In this document: in pieces, positions 4,299-13,472 of the stretch
Layout of the letters: each line of letters begins with the position of its first letter
Position numbering within the stretch: the stretch's first letter is position 1
DNA from: Phycisphaera mikurensis NBRC 102666
GTDB lineage: Bacteria; Planctomycetota; Phycisphaerae; Phycisphaerales; Phycisphaeraceae
Direction of reading: 5' to 3'
NCBI RefSeq assembly: GCF_000284115.1
Contig: NC_017080.1
Coordinates: forward strand, 30,001 to 62,000
DNA: 32,000 nucleotides
Made by a program: the position numbers and the translations under genes
The notes under the pieces: model-generated
Told to the model about the DNA's origin: nothing
Databases searched by the model: none
The model's input: the letters and a program-made list of their open reading frames with translations, nothing else

Positions 4299-7154
4299 TC
4301 AGCGGAGGGCGGCGGCGCGGATCGCGCGGAGGCGGGCGGCGGAGGCGGGACCGCCCAAGGCGGGGTCCTGGTCCTCGAGCTGCGCGACGGAGAGGCCGAC
4401 GCGGTCGACGCCTTCGCCCAGGGCGAGGTTGATCGAGAGCCGGCGGGCCCAGGCGTTCCAGAAGGCCGGCGGTCGCGTGCCGGCGAGGCCGCGGATCAAG
4501 CGGTCGTAGTACGGCGCGGCGCCGCGGGCGGCGGCGTCGGCCCCGGGCTCGTCGGTGAGCGTGAACGCGGTGCCGCCGGCGTCGCGGGTGCGGCGGACGC
4601 CCAGGGCGAAGCGGGCCTCGGCGGCGGCTTCGAGCACGCCGGCGTCGGCGGGGAAGGCGGCCTCCACGCCGGACTCCGCGAGGAAGGCGATGGCGCCGCC
4701 GGGGTCCCCCGAGCGGGTGAGGCCGTTGGCGTAAGCCAGCCGCCAGGGCAGCATGTCGGCTTCGGAGAGGCCGCGCCGGTTGGCGTCGGCCAGCAGCAGC
4801 GCCGCGAGCTGCACGGCGGAGGCGGAGACGCCGGCGGCCTCGTCCTCCAGCTCGGCGGCCCGGCTGGCGGAGGCGTCGCGGGCCCGCTCGGCCAGGGCGT
4901 CGGCCCGGGCCAGGAGGTCGGCGAGCACGCTCTTGACGACGCCGGCGGCGGCGGCGGGGTGGGCCTCCATCATCCCCGCGGCCTCGGCGGCGGCGGCGGC
5001 GGGCTCCCCGGCGGCGAGGAAGGCGGCGACGCGGAGCCCGGCGGCTTCGGCGAGCAGGCCGGGGACCGCGGCGGTGGCGGCGGGGTCGCCGCTGACCGAC
5101 GCGAGGCGGGCATCGAGGCCGTCGAGCCCGGCGGCGGCGGCGGAGGGGTTGCCGCGGGCGCTCTGGATGCGGGCGGCCGCGAGCGCGGCGCGGCCGACGC
5201 CGAGCACGGCGGCCGCGGGGTCGGCCCGGCCGCGGGCCCGGGCCTCGGCGGCGAGCCGCTCGGCGGTGGCCTCGGCGGCGTCGAGCAGCGTCCGCGCCGC
5301 TTCCCGCGAGGGCGCGGCGGCCGCGGCACGCTCCCGCGCGTCCAGGGACAGGCCGAGCGCGTCGAGCCGCTGCGGGTGGTCCGCGGGCACGAGCTCGTAC
5401 ACGGCCGCCGCTCCCGCATCGTCGCCGCGGAGGGTGTGGCCGGCGTAGGCCCAGTACAGCCGGTGGCGTTCGGCGGCGGGGGTCTCGGCGAAGCGGGAGA
5501 ACAGCAGCGACATCACCTCGGCGTAGCGGTCGGCGACCGGGCCATCGGGTCGGCTGGCCGAGGCCTGCGCCGAGGCGGCGAGGTCGGCGGCGCGGGCGAT
5601 CGCGGGCTCGGCCTCGGCGGACCGGGGGAAGTCGCGGGCGATCGCGAGCAGCGACGCGATCGACGCGTCGACGGCGGCGGGGTCGTCGGGCGAGGCCGCC
5701 GCGGTGGCGGCGGCGAGGTCGGCGGCGGCACCCAGGGCGGCGTCGCGCTCGACGCCTTCGGGCAGCGCGGCGGGGTCCCCCAGGCCGGACACCGCGGCGG
5801 ACGCGGCGGCGGCGGCCCGGGCGTGGTCGCCGGCGGCGAGGGCCTCGCGGGCGACGGCGGCGGCGACGCGGGGCGGCAGGCCGGCGGCTTCGACGCCGGC
5901 GCCAGCGGCGAGCGACGCCTGCCGCGAGCGGGCGAGCGCATCGAGCGCGGGCGGCAGGCCGTCGTAGGCGCCGGCCGCGGCGGCGGCGTCGCCCGCGGCG
6001 GCGGCGTGGCGGGCGGCGGCGTCGGCCACGAGCAGGGCCAGCATCGGGTCGCTGCTGCGGGTGGCGGCCGCGGCGGCGGCGGCCAGCGCCGCCTCCGCGG
6101 CCGCGCCGTCCTGGGTCGCGGCGAGCGCGAGCCTGGCGGTGACGGCGAGGCGGCCGGGCGGCAGCTCCGGCACGAGGTTGCGGAGCGTCGCGGCGGCGCC
6201 GGCAAGATCGCCCGAAGCGGCGTTGGCGCGGGCGAGCAGGAGCGAGGCGGCGGGGGCGAGCGGGCCGGGGTCGCCGTCGAGCAGGGCCCGGGCCGATCGC
6301 CGGGCGAGATCGAGCAGGCGCCGCCGCTCGGCGGCGGGATCGTCGAGGCGGCCGGCGAGCGGCACGGGCGGCGCGGCGTCGTGATACGGGTCGCCGGCGG
6401 GCAGCGTCGCCAGGCCGAGCGCGGCGGTGGCGACGCCAAGCGGCGCGCGCCGCTCGGCCACTCCCCGGAGCACGGCGTCGGCGAGCCCGGAGGCGCGGGC
6501 GTCGGCCTCGGCGGCGCGGTCGCGGCCGAGCGCGTTCCGCAGGCGGGCGGCGGCGGCGCCGGCCTCCTGCGCGGCGGCGAGCGCCTCGGCCAGGGCGGGG
6601 GCGACGGGGGCGGCTTCGCTCGGGGACGGCCGGCCGTACGCGACGGAGAGGTCGGCGTGGCGGAGCCGGCGTTCCAGCCGGCCGACGAGCAGCGCCTCGG
6701 CGAGGTCGGCGGCGAAGAGCGCCCGCTGGGGGTGGCCCGCCAGCGCCGGGTCGGTGGCGAGCTCGCGGAGCGCCGCGAGCCGGGCGTTCGATGCGGCCGC
6801 GGCCCGCGTGGCCGCGGCCCGCAGCGCGTCGGCGTCGCCCGCCGCGGCGGCGGCGCGGCCGGCGGCGTCGGCCGAGACCTCCGCCGCGTGGGCCCCGGCC
6901 GCCGCGAGCACCCGCGCGGTCGCGGGGTCGTCCAGCGGCGGGGCGTCGGCCGCCCAGCGCTCCAGGAGCGCCGGGAGCCCTCGCTGCCCGAGGTCCCGCA
7001 GCAGCCGGTGCTCGGTGAAGGCGTCGGTGGTGCCCGCGGCGGGCGCCGCCGACGCGCCCGGCGAGACGCCCGCTGCGATCAGGACGGTGGCGGCGTGGAG
7101 GAAGCGGTGGCGGAGCGCGTGGGGCATGGGCACGGGGTGTCGGCGTGGCGTCAC
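4299..7154 (-). CDS. Alanine-rich 951-aa exported or membrane-anchored protein, probably all-helical (TPR/solenoid- or TolA-like); last gene of the ExbBD-vWA operon
   Basis: Long ORF whose start overlaps the exbD stop (GTGA). N-terminus ...MPHALRHRFLHAATVLIAAGVSPGASAAPAAG is hydrophobic and contains His. Ala/Leu/Arg/Asp-rich throughout. The start is GTG at 7154 or ATG at 7127. Confidence 0.7.
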   Translation of the reverse strand: MTPRRHPVPMPHALRHRFLHAATVLIAAGVSPGASAAPAAGTTDAFTEHRLLRDLGQRGLPALLERWAADAPPLDDPATARVLAAAGAHAAEVSADAAGRAAAAAGDADALRAAATRAAAASNARLAALRELATDPALAGHPQRALFAADLAEALLVGRLERRLRHADLSVAYGRPSPSEAAPVAPALAEALAAAQEAGAAAARLRNALGRDRAAEADARASGLADAVLRGVAERRAPLGVATAALGLATLPAGDPYHDAAPPVPLAGRLDDPAAERRRLLDLARRSARALLDGDPGPLAPAASLLLARANAASGDLAGAAATLRNLVPELPPGRLAVTARLALAATQDGAAAEAALAAAAAAATRSSDPMLALLVADAAARHAAAAGDAAAAAGAYDGLPPALDALARSRQASLAAGAGVEAAGLPPRVAAAVAREALAAGDHARAAAAASAAVSGLGDPAALPEGVERDAALGAAADLAAATAAASPDDPAAVDASIASLLAIARDFPRSAEAEPAIARAADLAASAQASASRPDGPVADRYAEVMSLLFSRFAETPAAERHRLYWAYAGHTLRGDDAGAAAVYELVPADHPQRLDALGLSLDARERAAAAAPSREAARTLLDAAEATAERLAAEARARGRADPAAAVLGVGRAALAAARIQSARGNPSAAAAGLDGLDARLASVSGDPAATAAVPGLLAEAAGLRVAAFLAAGEPAAAAAEAAGMMEAHPAAAAGVVKSVLADLLARADALAERARDASASRAAELEDEAAGVSASAVQLAALLLADANRRGLSEADMLPWRLAYANGLTRSGDPGGAIAFLAESGVEAAFPADAGVLEAAAEARFALGVRRTRDAGGTAFTLTDEPGADAAARGAAPYYDRLIRGLAGTRPPAFWNAWARRLSINLALGEGVDRVGLSVAQLEDQDPALGGPASAARLRAIRAAALR

Positions 7155-7621
7155 TTCATCGCGACGCGGGTGTAGCCCGCGGCGACGGCGGCGTTGAAGG
7201 CGTCGACGGTGTGCTGCCAGCGCACCGCGGGGTCGGCCTCGATGAGGATCGGGTGGTCGCTCTCGTAGAGGGCGCTCGGGCTGCGGCCGGGCCCGCGGCG
7301 CTGCGCCGCCAGGTCGTCGCGCAGCTCGGCGACGCCGGCGTAACGCCGGCGGCCGCGGGTGATTACCGCGGCGGTGTCGTCGCCGGCCGGCACGGCGATC
7401 TCGATCACGACCTTCTGCACCGGCAGCTCGTCGAGCGGTGGCGGCTGGCCGGTGCCCCGCGGCAGCTGGGCCTCCAGCACGCCCTCGTCCACCTGGAAGT
7501 TCGCGGTGATGACGAAGTAGATGAGCAGCAGGAAGATCACGTCGATCATCGACGTGAGGTTCAGCTGGCCCACGCGGGCGGCGCCCCGGCCGCGGCGGGA
7601 TCTGGGGCGGGCGTCGCTCAC
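7151..7621 (-). CDS. exbD: Biopolymer transport protein ExbD/TolR family (copy 2)
   Basis: 156 aa. N-terminal TM LNLTSMIDVIFLLLIYFVI carries the conserved membrane Asp. The GTG start overlaps the upstream exbD stop (GTGA). Confidence 0.88.
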   Translation of the reverse strand: MSDARPRSRRGRGAARVGQLNLTSMIDVIFLLLIYFVITANFQVDEGVLEAQLPRGTGQPPPLDELPVQKVVIEIAVPAGDDTAAVITRGRRRYAGVAELRDDLAAQRRGPGRSPSALYESDHPILIEADPAVRWQHTVDAFNAAVAAGYTRVAMK

Positions 7622-8100
7622 CGGTCGGTCCCCGCGACGACGTCGATCTTGGCGACGCCCGCCGCCGTCACGGCCGCCATCACCGGGCGGACCTGGTCCT
7701 GGAAGAGCGCGGCGTCGGCGCGGAGCAGCACGCGGACGCCGGGGCGCCGCGCCACCGCTTCGCGGACGGCTGCGGTGATGCCGGCGGCGTCGCCGGGCTC
7801 GAAGCGGCCCAGCGCCCCCACCTGCACGAAGCTCGCGCGGCCGTCGTGGTTCAGCGGCTGCTGCGCGCGGCCGTCGCCGAAGGGCTGGGGCGCGATCGAG
7901 ACGATCAGCGTGTCGGCCTCGGGGGTCTCGCTGGTCTGCGGGTCCGAGGGCGTGGGCGGCAGCAGCGGCACCAGCTCGCTGGCGACGATGTTGTTCACGA
8001 GCATGAAGAACACGATGAGCAGGAAGGTGACGTCGATCAGCGGCGTCAGGTTCATCGTGGGCGTCACGCCCCGGCGTTTGGCGCTGCGGCGGGCGTCCAT
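7618..8100 (-). CDS. exbD: Biopolymer transport protein ExbD/TolR family (copy 1)
   Basis: 160 aa from the internal ATG (MDARRSAKRRGVTPTMNLTPLIDVTFLLIVFFML). The ATG shares one base with the exbB stop (TGATG). The longer ORF-track version (to 8382) overlaps exbB and was rejected. Confidence 0.88.
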   Translation of the reverse strand: MDARRSAKRRGVTPTMNLTPLIDVTFLLIVFFMLVNNIVASELVPLLPPTPSDPQTSETPEADTLIVSIAPQPFGDGRAQQPLNHDGRASFVQVGALGRFEPGDAAGITAAVREAVARRPGVRVLLRADAALFQDQVRPVMAAVTAAGVAKIDVVAGTDR

Positions 8101-8984
8101 CAGAAGTACGCCCCGTCGGCGGCGGGCGGCGCGGGCGCGGCCGGGGGGGCCGGAGGAGCCGGGGGCGGCGCGGGCGCGGGCGCGGGGGCGGGCGGCGCCG
8201 GGGCGGGAGCCGCGGCCGGGGCGGGCGGCTTGCGCTTCGCGGCCGCGGAACCCTTCCCGCTCGGCCGGAAAGGCCGAAGGATTGCTTCGGCCTCGAGCAC
8301 GGCGTCGGCCGCCAGCGCGTCCACGCGGTTGTGCAGCAGGGCGTACGCGGCCAGCGCCGGGATCGCGACGACCAGGCCCCACAGCGTCGTCACCAGCGCC
8401 GTGGAGATGCCGCCGGCGAGCTGCACCGGGTCCGGCGAGCCGCCGGAGGACACCAGCGACTGGAAGGCGACGATCATGCCGTAGACGGTGCCGAAGAGGC
8501 CCATCATCGGGGCGATGTTGCCGAGCACGTTCAGCGCCTCGATGGGCCGCAGCAGCTTGGCCGTCTCGGCGTCGCCGGTCTCCAGCAGCGTCCGCTCCAT
8601 CACCTCGTAGCCCGCGGGCGCCTCGACGAGCGCGGCGGCGGTCAGGTCGCCCAGCAGGCTGCCGTCCTTCTGCGCCGCGTCGAGCGCTTCGCGGAACTTG
8701 CGCTCGCCGAGCAGGCGCTTCAGCTCGGGCTTCAAGCCGGCCGGCAGCAGCGTCGCCCGGCGGAATTGCACGGCGTAGCGGATCGCCAGCGTCAGGCTGA
8801 TCATCGACAGCAGCACGAGCACCCAGATGAAGACAAGCCCCACCGGGTCGTCGCTCCAGAAGAACATCCCGAAGAAGGAGGTCTGCGTCGGGCCGGCGGG
8901 CGCGTCGCCGGGCTGGGCCGCGGCCGATGCGGCGGGGAGCAGAAGCAGCGGCAGGACCGGGAGGAGGCGGCGGGCGTGGATCAT
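8100..8984 (-). CDS. exbB: MotA/TolQ/ExbB proton-channel family protein with N-terminal signal sequence and C-terminal Pro/Ala-rich tail
   Basis: 294 aa. GNIAPMMGLFGTVYGMIVAF and GGISTALVTTLWGLVVAIPALAAYALLHNRV are typical MotA_ExbB TM2/TM3 motifs. The tail reads KRKPPAPAAAPAPAPPAPAPAPAPPPAPPAPPAAPAPPAADGAYF. Confidence 0.92.
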   Translation of the reverse strand: MIHARRLLPVLPLLLLPAASAAAQPGDAPAGPTQTSFFGMFFWSDDPVGLVFIWVLVLLSMISLTLAIRYAVQFRRATLLPAGLKPELKRLLGERKFREALDAAQKDGSLLGDLTAAALVEAPAGYEVMERTLLETGDAETAKLLRPIEALNVLGNIAPMMGLFGTVYGMIVAFQSLVSSGGSPDPVQLAGGISTALVTTLWGLVVAIPALAAYALLHNRVDALAADAVLEAEAILRPFRPSGKGSAAAKRKPPAPAAAPAPAPPAPAPAPAPPPAPPAPPAAPAPPAADGAYF

Positions 8985-8994
8985 GGGCGGGGGG

Positions 8995-9510
8995 TCATCG
9001 GGCGGCGGCGAGCCGGTCGAGCGTGGCGGCGTCGCCGCCGCGGACCAGAAGCGGCTCGGCCTCGAGGAGCAGGCGGTCCGCGGCGGCTTCGGCCTCGGGG
9101 CCGCCGAGCAGGCGGAGCGTGACGGCGGCCTCCAGAAGGGCCGGGCCGTGGAGCGGTCCGCCGGCGGGCCCGGCGGCGGCGGAGCGCAGGAAGGCGAGCG
9201 CCGCGTCCAGCCGGAGCGTCCGGGCCGCCCCCGCTTCGGCGGCCGCCCGTGCCCGGACCCGCAGGGCGACGCCGGCGAGCAGGTGGTGGCGGGCCCGGCC
9301 GTCGGCGTCCCCGGGCGGGCGGCGGTCCAGCGCGGCGAGGGCGGCCGCGGCCGCGGCGGCGTCGCCCGCCGCGGCCGCCCGCTGCAGCTCCGCCGCGGGG
9401 CGGTCGCCCGCGAGGGCCGCGGGGGCGGTCCACGCGGGCATCTCCCGCCCGAGCGCGGGCGTCGCGAGCAGCCCGACGGCCGCGAGAATCAGCAGGAGGT
9501 TCCTCTTCAT
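8995..9510 (-). CDS. Secreted Ala-rich helical protein (171 aa), hypothetical, possibly TPR-like
   Basis: Signal peptide MKRNLLLILAAVGLLATPALG. The ATG overlaps the upstream vWA stop (ATGA). The stop lies 10 nt before the exbB start. Confidence 0.65.
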   Translation of the reverse strand: MKRNLLLILAAVGLLATPALGREMPAWTAPAALAGDRPAAELQRAAAAGDAAAAAAALAALDRRPPGDADGRARHHLLAGVALRVRARAAAEAGAARTLRLDAALAFLRSAAAGPAGGPLHGPALLEAAVTLRLLGGPEAEAAADRLLLEAEPLLVRGGDAATLDRLAAAR

Positions 9511-10475
9511 CGCAGGCCCATGTCCTCTTCGCTCACGAAGGTGTACGTGCCGCCGGTCGCGGCGGCGATCTTCTCCAGCGTGCCCGCCTCGCCCGCGGCC
9601 TGCCAGCGATCCTGGTTCAGGAACTGGATCGTGTTGATCTTGGTGTTGCTGCGGTTCACCTCGGCGATCCGCTCCAGCAGGTCCGCCTGCTCGATCTGGT
9701 ACTCCGCCCGCCCGGTGATCTCATCGGACAGAAGAAAGACCAGCTGCGGCCGGTACCGCTCGAGCGCCTGCCGCAGCGCCGGCACCGGGTCCCCCGACCC
9801 GATCGCGTACACGTTGCCCGCGTCGAGGTCGATCCACGAGGCGACGTCGTTCTTGCGCTGCGTGCTCGCGGGCTGGAGCCCCGCCGGCGGCACCTCGCGG
9901 AAGGGCTCGCCCTCGAAGTCGCCGAAGAAGATCACCGCGAACCGCTGCTCGTTGCTGAGCTTTCGGATCGAGGCCTTGAGCTCCTGGATCACGAAGGGCA
10001 GCTCCGCCACGCCGCCGCCGGAGGCGTCGATGAGGAAGACCAGCTCGCGGGCGTCGCCGCCGCGGCTGCCCATGAACGTGGCGGCGAGCTGCGCCGGCGG
10101 CGCCGCGGGGGGGGGCGGCGGCGGCGGCGGCGGGCCGACGGCCAGGGCCGGCAGCGGCGGCGCGGCGGGCGCCGCGGGCGCGGGCGGCGGCGGGACCGGC
10201 GGCGGTGGCACGGCCGAGGGCACCGGGGGCGGTGTCGCCTCGGTCGCGGGCGTGGGCGTGGTCACCACCACCGCGTCGTCGGGCGTGTCGGCCAGCTCCA
10301 GGAGCGGCGAGACGTCCTCCTTCTGCGCCTGCACGACCGTCCAGACCGCAAGCCCCGCGACGGCGATGACCAGGGCGTGCGCGACGATGGACACCACCCA
10401 CGGCATCGCCCGCGTGAAGAAGTCCGCCTCGCGCGGCGGCACGCTCCGGCCGCTGTTCGTGATTCCCTCGGCCAT
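9507..10475 (-). CDS. Membrane-anchored von Willebrand factor A (vWA) domain protein with TonB-like N-terminal TM helix and poly-Pro spacer
   Basis: 322 aa from ATG 10475, with SD GGGGGAG 7 nt upstream. TM helix PWVVSIVAHALVIAVAGLAVW carries an SxxxH pattern. A Pro-rich linker includes P9. The vWA core is ELVFLIDASGGG...RFAVIFFGD...LVFLLSDE. Confidence 0.85.
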   Translation of the reverse strand: MAEGITNSGRSVPPREADFFTRAMPWVVSIVAHALVIAVAGLAVWTVVQAQKEDVSPLLELADTPDDAVVVTTPTPATEATPPPVPSAVPPPPVPPPPAPAAPAAPPLPALAVGPPPPPPPPPAAPPAQLAATFMGSRGGDARELVFLIDASGGGVAELPFVIQELKASIRKLSNEQRFAVIFFGDFEGEPFREVPPAGLQPASTQRKNDVASWIDLDAGNVYAIGSGDPVPALRQALERYRPQLVFLLSDEITGRAEYQIEQADLLERIAEVNRSNTKINTIQFLNQDRWQAAGEAGTLEKIAAATGGTYTFVSEEDMGLR

Positions 10476-10629: not shown

Positions 10630-11754
10630 TCAGAAGCCCACGAAGCGGTGCGTCCCCCCGGTCACCGCGCTCATCAGCTCCAGCGTCGGCTTCCCGCCGT
10701 CGGCGGGGGCGGCGGCGCGGTCGACGAACTGGACCGTGTGGATCGCGGTCTCCGCGGCGACCCGCGTGGCCGCGGCAACCAGCCGCACCCGGGTGCCGGC
10801 GGGATCGACCCGGCCGTCCACCTGGTCGGACAGCAGGATCACCGTGTCGGGTTCGAGGGCCAGCGCCGCCTCGAGCGCCGCCGCCGCGTCGGCGCGGCCG
10901 GCGGGGAGCACGTGGCCGGCTTCGGGCGAGACGAAGGCGGCGCTGGCCCGCAGCAGGTCGCGTCGCGCGGCGGCCATGCGGCCGGGCGGCACCGCCACAG
11001 CCCGGCCGTCCAGGAAGAAGACGACGGCGTAGGACTGGGCCGGGCCGAGGCTCAATAGCGACCTCTCCAGCTCGCGCTGCACCGAGGCGAAGCTGTCGAT
11101 GAGCGAGCCGCTCGCGTCGATGAGGTAGACCGTGCGCCAGCCGGCGGGCAGGCCGAAGAAGGCGCCCGTCTCGAATTGGGCACGCCCGGCCCGCGGGACC
11201 GGCTGGGTGGTGAGCTCGGCCTCCCCGGCGGCGGGAGCCGGAGCCGAGGCCGACGCGGAGGCCGGGCCAACGGCGGACGCCGCCTCGGGCCCGGCCTCCC
11301 AGCGGACCTCGCCGAAGCCGCCGCGGCCGTCGTCGATGCGGTGCCGGGTCGGCCCCCGGGAGACGAGGCCCGCCGGAGCCGGGGCCGGGGTTGTCGCCGC
11401 CGCTGTCGCGGCCGCGGCCGCCGGCGCGGCGGGCCGGGCCTCCGCCGCCGCGGGCAAGCCGGCGCCGGCGGCGGCGGCGGCGGGCCCCGGAGCCGCCCGC
11501 TTGCCCAGCGGCACCAGCGACGGCCCGGCCGCCGGGCCGGTGGATGCCCGGGCGATCGGGTGCTCGCCGCCGAGGCCCAGCGAGACGCCGATGAGGGCGG
11601 TCGCGGCGAGGCCGATCACCAGGTGTGCGGCGAGGGCGCGGTGCGTGCCGCGGGCGGGTTGGGGGTCGTGCGGGTCGGTTGCCAAGGGAAGCCTCGGGGA
11701 AAGATGCGGTCGGTGGCGGCTTTCATCGACCACGGCGCGGGCGTGGCGCCACAC
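10630..11754 (-). CDS. Membrane-anchored vWA domain protein (second paralogous architecture)
   Basis: His-containing TM helix HRALAAHLVIGLAATALIGVSLGL, then an Ala/Pro-rich linker. The vWA core RTVYLIDASGSLIDSF...YAVVFFLDG...VILLSDQVDG has an intact DxSxS MIDAS start. The GTG start at 11754 is uncertain. Confidence 0.8.
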   Translation of the reverse strand: MWRHARAVVDESRHRPHLSPRLPLATDPHDPQPARGTHRALAAHLVIGLAATALIGVSLGLGGEHPIARASTGPAAGPSLVPLGKRAAPGPAAAAAGAGLPAAAEARPAAPAAAAATAAATTPAPAPAGLVSRGPTRHRIDDGRGGFGEVRWEAGPEAASAVGPASASASAPAPAAGEAELTTQPVPRAGRAQFETGAFFGLPAGWRTVYLIDASGSLIDSFASVQRELERSLLSLGPAQSYAVVFFLDGRAVAVPPGRMAAARRDLLRASAAFVSPEAGHVLPAGRADAAAALEAALALEPDTVILLSDQVDGRVDPAGTRVRLVAAATRVAAETAIHTVQFVDRAAAPADGGKPTLELMSAVTGGTHRFVGF

Positions 11755-11824: not shown

Positions 11825-12424
11825 TCAGCCGGCCGCGGCGAGCACCTTGTCCACGTACGCCCGGGTCATCGGACCCGCGTGCGCCGCGACGAGCCGCTCG
11901 GAGCTCATCTGCGGGTTCTCGCGGAGCAGCCTCGCCACGCGGGTCGGGCCCATGTGGTACGCCGCGACGGCGAGCCGCCGGTCGCCGTCGAAGCGCTCCA
12001 GCAGGTAGGCGAGGTAGCGGCTGCCGACCTCCACGTTGTGCACCGGGTCGAAGAGGTCGCCCGCCTCCATCCCGAAGCGACGCTGCGCTTCCTTGTGCGT
12101 CATCGGCATGATCTGCATCAGCCCGTGGGCGCCGGCGGAGGACACGGCATCAGGGTTGCCGCCGCTCTCGCAGAGCACCACGGCGCGGAGCAGCGCCGGG
12201 TCGAGGCCGTGCCGGGCGGACGCGTCGTCGAGCAGGTCCGACCAGTGCGACACCGTCCAGCCGCCGGCGGGGGCCCCGCGGCCCGCGTCGCCGCCGCCCC
12301 GCCACGCCAGGCCGATCGCGACCAGCAGCAGCGCGACGCCGGCGGAAGCCGCCAGCAGCCGGAGCGTGCCGCCGGGCCGCTCCGCCAGGTGCGCCCGCCA
12401 GCCGTTGCGGCCGCGACGCCTCAC
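11825..12424 (-). CDS. Lytic transglycosylase (SLT domain) with N-terminal membrane anchor
   Basis: SLT motifs CESGGNP, GLMQIMP and AAYHMGP. TM helix LRLLAASAGVALLLVAIGLAW. I prefer the GTG at 12424, which has GGGAG 6 nt upstream. The ATG at 12613 would overlap ftsY by 74 nt. Confidence 0.85.
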   Translation of the reverse strand: MRRRGRNGWRAHLAERPGGTLRLLAASAGVALLLVAIGLAWRGGGDAGRGAPAGGWTVSHWSDLLDDASARHGLDPALLRAVVLCESGGNPDAVSSAGAHGLMQIMPMTHKEAQRRFGMEAGDLFDPVHNVEVGSRYLAYLLERFDGDRRLAVAAYHMGPTRVARLLRENPQMSSERLVAAHAGPMTRAYVDKVLAAAG

Positions 12425-12539
12425 CGGCGGGCTCCCGCCCGCGGGGCGCCGCGGACCGTGCGGCCCGACGCCGGTTGAGGCCCGCGGTCCGCGGAAGCCC
12501 GGCGCCGCGGAGCGTCGCGCGTGCCCGGCGGCGACCCGC

Positions 12540-13472
12540 TCACGAGAACAGCGCCTCGACGAAGGCCGCGGGCTCGAAGGGCGCGACGTCGGCGGGCGTC
12601 TCGCCGAGGCCAACGAACTTCACCGGCAGGTTCAGCGCCTCGCGGATCGCGACGACGATGCCGCCCTTGGCGGAGCCGTCGAGCTTGGTGAGGAAGATGC
12701 CCGTCACCTCCGTCGCCTCGCTGAAGACCCGCGCCTGGTTCACGCCGTTCTGGCCGGTGGTCGCGTCGATCACCAGCAGCACCTCGTGCGGTGCGCCGGG
12801 GATCTGCTTGGCCACCACGCGGCGGATCTTGGAGAGCTGGTCCATCAGCGGCTTCTGCGTGTGCAGCCGGCCGGCGGTGTCGAGGAGGAGCACGTCGACC
12901 CCGCGGGCGACGGCGGCCGCGGCCGCGTCGAAGGCCACCGCCGCGGGGTCGCCGCCCTGGCTCCCTCGCACCACCTGCACGCCGAGCCGCTCGGCCCATA
13001 CGCCCAGCTGCTCGACCGCGGCGGCGCGGAAGGTGTCGCAGGCCGCGAGCAGCACGGTCTGCTCGCGGTCCCGCAGCACCTTGCAGAGCTTCGCGATGGA
13101 GGTGGTCTTGCCGGCACCGTTGATCCCGGCCACGAGGATCACGGTCGGGCCGGCGCCCGGGGCCGCCGCGGCGAGCGTGCGGTCTTCGTCGGGGAAGTAC
13201 GCCACGAGCTGCTCCTTGAGCATCGGCAAAGCCTCGTCGCCGGTGGCGACCTCGCCGCGTTCCCACATCGCCTCCAGGTCCTTCCGCAGCTCGATCGCCG
13301 TCTTCACGCCGACGTCGGCGCTGATCAGCGCCTTCTCCAGGTCCCGGAGCACGGCCTTGGACAGGGGCTTGCCCAGCAGCACACGCTTGATCGCCCCGCC
13401 CGTGGCGGAGCCGGCGCCGCCGCGCGAGAGGCCCTTCTTCAGGGTGTCGACGACGGAGCGGAAGAGGGCCAC
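12540..13472 (-). CDS. ftsY: Signal recognition particle receptor FtsY (short form, NG domain only)
   Basis: 310 aa. GINGAGKTTSIAKL (G1), DTAGRLH (G3), TKLDGSAKGG (G4). GTG start. Confidence 0.95.
   Translation of the reverse strand: MALFRSVVDTLKKGLSRGGAGSATGGAIKRVLLGKPLSKAVLRDLEKALISADVGVKTAIELRKDLEAMWERGEVATGDEALPMLKEQLVAYFPDEDRTLAAAAPGAGPTVILVAGINGAGKTTSIAKLCKVLRDREQTVLLAACDTFRAAAVEQLGVWAERLGVQVVRGSQGGDPAAVAFDAAAAAVARGVDVLLLDTAGRLHTQKPLMDQLSKIRRVVAKQIPGAPHEVLLVIDATTGQNGVNQARVFSEATEVTGIFLTKLDGSAKGGIVVAIREALNLPVKFVGLGETPADVAPFEPAAFVEALFS

Follow-up and report, generated by a model that had tools for sequence, protein, structure and literature searches.

The window examined here, 32,000 nucleotides of the Phycisphaera mikurensis NBRC 102666 genome (contig NC_017080.1, positions 30,001 to 62,000), carries on its minus strand the gene PSMK_00360, the second of an operon that also encodes ExbB- and ExbD-like motor subunits. 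Its product, an inner-membrane protein, has, in this order, one transmembrane (TM) helix with the motif PWxxSxxxH, a disordered tether of about 85 residues and a vWA (von Willebrand factor A) domain, and we consider it likely, at a probability of about 0.75, to be a periplasm-spanning transducer of force (or of conformational energy) that follows the plan of TonB and TolA with a different head. An original prediction, made from the DNA letters alone, had placed a TonB-like energy-coupling N-terminus on a vWA protein at this locus. That core idea is supported at the sequence level by the Ser/His face of the helix, by synteny with motor genes, by a D-box-like motif and by equivalents of S34 and P190 in the partner ExbB, and it agrees with an independent published prediction of vWA force transducers (Williams-Jones et al., 2025; Mol Biol Evol 42:msaf138). 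As judged from its sequence, PSMK_00360 is a new member, in a large Phycisphaerae clade, of the kind already predicted in 2025. Since P. mikurensis is cultured and has a closed genome, it provides a concrete operon for biochemical work.

In diderm bacteria, the Ton and Tol systems are the only well-understood routes by which proton energy from the inner membrane is carried to the outer membrane. The joining of a docking helix, a D-box and a tether to a vWA adhesion head would point to one more, so far unexplored output for 5:2 proton motors. The family is also large, as an exhaustive hidden Markov model (HMM) search of 1.84 billion cluster representatives (50% identity) returned 1494 of them at E<=1e-30.

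Anatomy of PSMK_00360 and conservation of its helix

A protein search returned PSMK_00360 at 100% identity, with the database annotation 11 codons shorter than the reading frame used here. The longer frame opens with an ATG at 10475 that has a GGAG-like Shine-Dalgarno sequence 7-8 nt to its 5' side, and its first Met is where the alignment with close homologs begins. An AlphaFold2 (AF2) monomer model based on 21 homologs places a helix at residues 19-52, with predicted local distance difference test (pLDDT) values of 87-96 across residues 21-50, then a region of low confidence (53-130) and a domain at 144-314 where pLDDT is mostly >90. Residues 144-313 match Pfam VWA_3 (32.6 bits against a cut-off of 27), and Foldseek relates the C-terminal domain with probability 1.0 to solved vWA domains (ITIH1, calcium-channel alpha2delta, vWF A1, TRAP and CMG2). 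The C-terminus is thus a vWA domain, as originally proposed; neither Pfam nor Foldseek matched a TonB_C domain in the protein.

The TM segment quoted in the original prediction (TRAMPWVVSIVAHALVIAVAGLAVW) is present in the open reading frame, and the E. coli TonB segment set beside it is identical to PDB chain 9ddo_F. The spacing of TonB is reproduced, with S29-x3-H33 corresponding to S16-x3-H20. What does not hold is the statement that the same Pro-Trp precedes it: the pair stands four residues before the Ser in PSMK_00360 and six before it in TonB, and is therefore two residues out of register.

A species-level genome scan with a 10-sequence alignment gave 76 Phycisphaerae loci, and with three from protein look-ups the set came to 77 distinct loci. 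All 91 full-length orthologs in these loci, gathered with no pattern that requires a His, have a His with Ser, Ala or Thr at -4. PWxxSxxxH is found in 72, SxxxH without the exact PW in nine and PWxx[A/T]xxxH in eight, and in the remaining two, which a script left unclassified, the motif was seen on inspection. Conservation among orthologs, on which the original prediction had staked itself, is what these genes display. Column counts were read from a set of 92 sequences picked with a His-requiring pattern, so that H33 is present in 92 of 92 by construction; P25 and W26 are each found in 88, S29 in 83 (Ala in six, Thr in three), A40 in 78, V44 in 68 and W45 in 82. The conserved face S29/H33/A40/V44 has the spacing (i, i+4, i+11, i+15) of the Ser-His-Leu-Ser (SHLS) face of TonB and TolA (16, 20, 27, 31). 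A wider set of 165 proteins, consisting of the initial homologs of PSMK_00360 plus the best 150 of the 1494 HMM matches (50%-identity representatives), has PWxx[SAT]xxxH in 141, the remainder being mostly fragments.

The operon's first gene encodes a second vWA protein, and orthologs of this paralog type keep the TM His in nine of nine cases; the Ser is not kept. Tyr replaces the His in P0153, a divergent upstream paralog with a canonical copy adjacent. In a distant member of the family (P0021, L082:459-1670; 25% identity) the PWxxSxxxH helix is preceded by a cytoplasmic zinc-ribbon, CxxC...CxxC, and the gene is followed by the small gene and ExbB.

Motor linkage, post-membrane motif and tether

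To follow synteny, the proteins of the window's operon were searched by tblastn in all loci, 75 of which had enough downstream DNA. The same-strand order of a PSMK_00360-type gene, a gap of about 1.2 kb with a small tetratricopeptide repeat (TPR)-like gene, ExbB, ExbD, ExbD and a large TPR protein was found in 69 of these (92%), and gene calls on independent contigs concur with it. About 24 loci have two or three tandem transducer genes ahead of a single motor. Three tandem copies occur in the loci numbered L049 and L061 and two in L032, L048, L069, L074 and others; three ExbD paralogs are present in L055, L061, L062 and L074, and L064 contains one more transducer, with its own ExbD pair behind it.

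In P. mikurensis, PSMK_00360 lies between the vWA paralog and a gene for a protein of 171 residues, whose start overlaps its stop (ATGA). The ExbB stop overlaps the start of ExbD1 (TGATG), and there are 4-nt overlaps at both the ExbD1/ExbD2 junction and that between ExbD2 and the gene for a 951-residue protein. Several overlapping start/stop junctions of this sort indicate translational coupling in the operon. The paralog has the same layout as PSMK_00360, as had been claimed: it matches it by BLASTP across the vWA domain (E=5e-16) and has a His-containing TM helix that includes ALAAHLVIGL. It is likely to be a second transducer.

Just past the helix, the family consensus in the 92-sequence alignment is EE-x-I-I-P-x-A-R-L-S-x-T-P-G-x-P-L, with P57 in 86, L61 in 63, S62 in 65 and P65 in 81. 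When PSMK_00360 and TonB are set in ungapped register at an offset of 13, TonB S16 falls on S29, H20 on H33 and D-box residues 43-54 (QPISVTMVTPAD) on residues 56-67 (SPLLELADTPDD), where P44, T51, P52 and D54 of the D-box are matched. The D-box is the segment of TonB that is captured by the ExbD dimer through strand recruitment (PMC10907165; peptide in PDB 8p9r). Residues 55-69 are disordered and form no strand in the AF2 monomer model, which is expected because a motif of this sort pairs with a strand of its partner. The IIPxxxLSxTP motif starts 24 residues past the His, as does the D-box of E. coli TonB. This exact spacing was considered as a special signal and rejected: the His-to-Pro distance, measured with a simple pattern found in 73 of 141 proteins, is most often 26 and ranges from 18 to 36, and the agreement is a coincidence within that conserved range.

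The Pro/Ala-rich spacer of the original prediction is present, with residues 70-131 being 49% Pro and 21% Ala. Its likeness to the proline rod of TonB is specific to P. mikurensis, and it is the length alone that is conserved. The Pro fraction of 0.49 is the highest among the 92 sequences, the family median is 0.08, and Ser/Thr-rich linkers are common. Poly-proline is therefore most simply explained as compositional in an organism of about 75% G+C (65-84% within the window). The distance from the end of the TM helix to the vWA preamble has a median of 88 residues across the 92 sequences (interquartile range 87-90, range 82-127) and is 85 in PSMK_00360; as far as the alignment goes, a length so conserved would fit a tether that sets reach. 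The head carries the residues of a metal-ion-dependent adhesion site (MIDAS) in most members of the same set, with D150 in 88, S152 in 86, S154 in 84, Ser or Thr at 228 in 65 and D251 in 89.

The partner at the putative docking site also bears on the comparison. By cryo-electron microscopy, S16 and H20 of TonB touch S34 and W38 of ExbB, S18 and H22 of TolA touch S28 and W32 of TolQ, and that Trp contacts a Pro of TM3 (P190 in ExbB; PMC12215075). The ExbB of the window was aligned to E. coli ExbB and the columns were read across 69 Phycisphaerae ExbBs; the equivalents of S34, P190 and both pore threonines are listed in Table 1.

Known relatives, proposed mechanism and rival explanations

The vWA force transducers of the Planctomycetes-Verrucomicrobia-Chlamydiae (PVC) bacteria were predicted computationally, with an SHLS-bearing TM helix, a disordered linker that holds a motor box, then domain II (about 100 residues) and, at the C-terminus, a vWA domain; they are distributed among Proteobacteria, Planctomycetes, Verrucomicrobia, Bacteroidetes and Rhodothermaeota, and AlphaFold3 models place the TM His at the edge of the motor, at the TonB/TolA site (Williams-Jones et al., 2025). 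PSMK_00360 has the published features, that is, the Ser-x3-His helix, a motor-box-like motif, domain II with vWA, motor synteny and homology to a type protein. The last of these was obtained with transducer 1 of Tichowtungia aerotolerans, which the family profile matches by hhalign with a probability of 97.2% (E=3.2e-11) over 151 columns that span the vWA domain and the F-F-G preamble. The TM helix lies outside this local alignment; in that segment the Tichowtungia proteins (AAAISIGIHVILILLAGSIV) look similar to the consensus of the family (ISILFHVGLVLLAIFIV). The Tichowtungia proteins likewise have a TM Ser-x3-His, a motor-box linker, domain II of some 100 residues and a vWA domain; each locus has two transducers, and the neighbouring genes are a tolQ-like gene, a heterologous pair of tolR-like genes and one for a TPR protein. 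There are three differences: in P. mikurensis the vWA genes lie upstream of the motor and are separated from it by an additional small TPR-like gene, the Phycisphaerae add a nearly invariant Pro-Trp before the Ser, and the Phycisphaerae MIDAS is mostly an intact DxSxS, whereas the Tichowtungia proteins have DADKR or DANKL. P. mikurensis is not named in the paper or in the supplements examined. Beyond what is mentioned there, the present analysis adds that tether length is fixed, that poly-proline composition is not conserved, that the TonB-contact network in ExbB is partly conserved (Ser34 and Pro190 equivalents kept, Trp38 lost) and that the transducer helix has an extra Pro-Trp.

With E. coli TonB (PDB 9ddo, 8p9r) the protein shares a single N-in TM helix with Ser-x3-His near the cytoplasmic side, the D-box-like motif 24 residues past the His, a long non-globular tether that is Pro-rich in P. 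mikurensis, and an operon with ExbB/ExbD whose ExbB retains the S34 and P190 equivalents. It differs in having a vWA head, whereas TonB uses a TonB_C domain to bind Ton boxes by strand addition; in having Ala and Val for Leu27 and Ser31; in the two-residue offset of the PW; in the aliphatic equivalent of ExbB W38; in the two different ExbD subunits of the operon; and in showing no HMM-level sequence homology in the Pfam and PDB searches. TolA, as seen in the E. coli TolQRA cryo-electron microscopy structure, is comparable in its SHLS-type helix at the TolQ Ser28/Trp32 site, its motor-box strand after the helix and its envelope role, as distinct from import, and the Tol-Pal system goes with a TPR protein, CpoB. 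The P. mikurensis cluster is unlike it: TolA domain III, tolB and pal were found neither in the window operon nor in related loci, and Pfam on the window and gene calls on related contigs gave no TonB_C or TolA-type gene in the operon or related clusters. Planctomycetes are reported to be without pal (Williams-Jones et al., 2025, supplement). A literature search for TonB, or for transporters that depend on it, in Phycisphaera and the Planctomycetes gave nothing usable.

Two further systems invite comparison. GltG and GltJ of the Myxococcus Agl-Glt machine are single-pass TonB-like proteins with a TolQR-type motor, and a vWA adhesin, CglB, reportedly takes part in this gliding machine (Islam et al. 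2023, cited in msaf138). The TM helix and linker of PSMK_00360 weakly match NCBIfam gliding_GltJ (E=0.0028, 16.8 bits against a cut-off of 450), which may reflect Pro-rich composition, and Myxococcus GltJ has a zinc-ribbon N-terminus that recalls P0021. However, GltG and GltJ bear TonB_C heads, and no other glt genes are present at the P. mikurensis locus. BatA and BatB of the Bacteroides and Leptospira bat operons are paired membrane-anchored vWA proteins encoded with TPR proteins; bat operons are not known to have ExbB/ExbD or an SxxxH helix.

From the anatomy, conservation, synteny, homology to the published vWA transducers and the partly retained contact network described above, we infer physical docking, dependence on the proton-motive force, a vWA ligand and a cellular role along the following lines. 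The N-terminal helix would dock outside the ExbB-like pentamer through its Ser29/His33 face, and the strand-prone motif just outside the membrane would be captured by the periplasmic domains of an ExbD1/ExbD2 heterodimer. Proton flow through ExbB5-ExbD2 would then pull on or re-orient the transducer, and the tether of about 88 residues would pass the work to the C-terminal vWA domain. This domain may hold a partner at or near the outer membrane, for which the two co-encoded secreted TPR proteins or their binding partners are candidates. The upstream paralog would be a second transducer on the same motor.

A number of observations weigh against this proposal. The profile comparison with the TonB N-terminus that the original prediction had proposed gave a divided answer. 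Pfam searches (E<=10) with the N-terminal regions of PSMK_00360 (132 residues) and the paralog (195 residues) returned no match and no TonB N-terminal family, and the family's N-terminal profile run against all PDB sequences (E<=10) returned MFS transporters at chance level and no TonB or TolA, though full-length TonB is present there. A signal in favour did emerge when the N-terminal module was compared by hhalign with an alignment of 11 TonB/TolA N-termini (those of TonB and TolA from E. coli plus nine from the msaf138 supplement): across 42 columns the probability was 69% (E=4.4e-5), the Ser and the His each aligned with its counterpart, and the score of 24.9 exceeded 200 of 200 full column shuffles (mean 7.0, maximum 14.7) and 199 of 200 shuffles of the TM block (mean 13.5, sd 3.3). 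The resemblance to TonB and TolA thus lies in the order of residues, beyond composition, which does not by itself prove common descent, and as a profile-profile signal it is moderate. The Leu and Ser of SHLS are replaced by Ala40 and Val44, positions that are less conserved in Ton (PMC12215075). In ExbB the loss of W38 leaves two of three relay residues, S34 and P190, so that the contact network is partly conserved; that Trp26 of the transducer helix makes up for the missing Trp is speculation. There is one true exception to the helix motif, P0087 (L080:8001-9050), which has Thr and Trp for Ser and His (PWAITILIWSAII) within a complete ExbB-ExbD-ExbD-TPR operon; the first 105 residues of the other vWA-sized gene upstream of it also lack a TM His. 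Six of the 75 loci have a vWA gene without adjacent motor genes, and for two of them (L021 and L079) the same genomes hold a second, motor-linked locus (L019 and L011). The MIDAS of PSMK_00360 is degenerate, with two of five residues missing (G154, G228) and A157 replacing a family Asp, which makes metal-dependent ligand binding doubtful for this protein. The difference between its DASGG and the DASGS kept in the paralog, pointed out in the original prediction, is read in both translations, and DASGG is common to its three closest relatives. Finally, an AF2 monomer model cannot show complex formation, and the published family has no known phenotypes and no experiments (Williams-Jones et al., 2025).

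Some of these points would suit a passive, membrane-anchored vWA scaffold or adhesin of the BatA/BatB kind, in which the TM His would serve oligomerisation or stability and the motor would energise something else, either the TPR proteins directly or a protein of the TonB/TolA type whose gene lies elsewhere. The motor-less loci, the missing HMM-level link to TonB N-termini and the motor-linked member without a His are all compatible with it, and the pairing of vWA genes with TPR genes recalls the bat operons. We nevertheless think it unlikely. It would have to accommodate a polar His kept through 91 of 91 orthologs in a single-pass helix, on the face and at the depth seen in TonB and TolA, together with a D-box-like conserved strand at the TonB position, 92% motor synteny with start and stop codons that overlap, an ExbB in which the S34 and P190 equivalents are invariant, and a cluster that has no TonB_C gene.

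Should the protein bind the motor, it could still be an anchor for the stator, its vWA head fixing ExbBD to a periplasmic or outer-membrane landmark in the manner of MotB or Pal, with the output belonging to another component such as the TPR proteins. The tightly fixed tether length would suit a spacer, the vWA MIDAS is dispensable in P. mikurensis, and two secreted TPR proteins are always co-encoded. In the Ton and Tol systems, however, ExbD and TolR themselves provide the peptidoglycan contact. The helix that occupies this ExbB/TolQ site in both systems is moreover that of the output protein (PMC12215075), and we regard an anchor as improbable. A TolR-like, trans-pore position of the TM helix within the ExbB pentamer was rejected as most improbable. 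It would align PSMK_00360 with a second family of TM helix plus vWA proteins, also in heterologous pairs, which have an Asp in the TM helix, no SHLS residues and tolQ without tolR/exbD (msaf138). Here neither vWA protein carries an Asp in its TM helix, the operon has two ExbD genes with a TM Asp, and the SxxxH face of PSMK_00360 is lacking in that family.

A broader reading can be put forward tentatively, with more doubt than confidence. In Phycisphaerae, which are reported to lack Pal, the conserved module, with its one to three vWA transducers and its genes for a small TPR-like protein, for ExbB, ExbD1 and ExbD2 and for a large TPR protein, might form a third functional class of Ton/Tol-type machine, devoted neither to import nor to Pal tethering. 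Several heterologous vWA transducers might share one motor with a heterodimeric stator through the Ser/His site, the ruler of about 88 residues might set their reach, and the vWA heads might form force-sensitive (integrin-like) bonds with the co-encoded TPR proteins or with a partner in the outer membrane, thereby organising or remodelling the envelope. The P. mikurensis pair, one with a degenerate MIDAS and the other with DASGS, might then represent a division of labour.

The operon and its surroundings

Table 1. Window coordinates of the operon and of the parts of PSMK_00360, with partner ExbB residues matched to E. coli ExbB.
Feature	Position	Strand	Remarks
vWA paralog, 374 residues, operon gene 1	10630..11754	minus	His-containing TM helix (AxxxH), long linker rich in Ala/Pro, DASGS in the vWA domain
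PSMK_00360, 322 residues, putative TM helix-tether-vWA force transducer	9507..10475	minus	
TM helix core, residues 25-47 (PWVVSIVAHALVIAVAGLAVWTV)	10335..10403	minus	AF2 helix and column conservation
S29 codon	10389-10391	minus	
H33 codon	10377-10379	minus	
D-box / 'motor box'-like motif, residues 55-69 (VSPLLELADTPDDAV)	10269..10313	minus	column conservation
Disordered Pro/Ala-rich tether, residues 70-131	10083..10268	minus	pLDDT about 50-60
vWA domain including an N-terminal beta-hairpin preamble (F134-x-G136...G140-N-A), residues 132-314	9534..10082	minus	
Small secreted helical/TPR-like protein, 171 residues, operon gene 3	8995..9510	minus	
ExbB/TolQ-like proton-channel pentamer subunit, operon gene 4	8100..8984	minus	Pfam MotA_ExbB 7e-28; NCBIfam and PDB TolQ/ExbB matches
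ExbD/TolR-like subunit 1, TM Asp in LIDV, operon gene 5	7618..8100	minus	Pfam, NCBIfam
ExbD/TolR-like subunit 2, TM Asp in MIDV, operon gene 6	7151..7621	minus	Pfam, NCBIfam
Ala-rich secreted protein, 951 residues, operon gene 7	4299..7154	minus	TPR repeats in orthologs
E. coli ExbB S34	Phycisphaerae S60		invariant, 69/69
E. coli ExbB P190	Phycisphaerae P209		invariant, 69/69
E. coli ExbB T148	Phycisphaerae T166		pore threonine, invariant, 69/69
E. coli ExbB T181	Phycisphaerae T200		pore threonine, invariant, 69/69
E. coli ExbB W38	Phycisphaerae position 64		aliphatic: V25, I23, M8, L7

Directly upstream of the vWA paralog is a gene for a lytic transglycosylase (SLT domain, 1.5e-30; 11825-12613, minus strand). 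No counterpart of it was found in any of the 77 related loci, so it lies outside the module and its adjacency is probably incidental. A further open reading frame on the minus strand (12540-13472, 310 residues) is FtsY-like by translation, with GINGAGKTT and DTAGR motifs, and appears unrelated to the module. A known defence system was considered and set aside, as PADLOC gave solely a generic ZorA/MotA-family match for ExbB.

At its N-terminus the ExbB-like protein is extended by a signal-peptide-like stretch, and at its C-terminus it has a tail of some 50 residues rich in Pro/Ala (KPPAPAAAPAPAPPAP...). Orthologs of the 171-residue protein are usually about 350-400 residues long; they begin with a signal peptide, share a 'VKLGGFWI' region in their N-terminal part and give a weak TPR signal towards the C-terminus. 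The copy in P. mikurensis is short and lacks the conserved N-terminal 'AD-x-VKLGGFWI...DGQL.Y', and those in L040 and L077 are among the few other short ones. The 951-residue protein is extremely Ala-rich and itself has no Pfam match, and its ortholog in L075 scores above the Pfam cut-offs for TPR_14, TPR_19 and TPR_6. Across its gene the G+C content rises to 83-84%, especially at 5001-7000.

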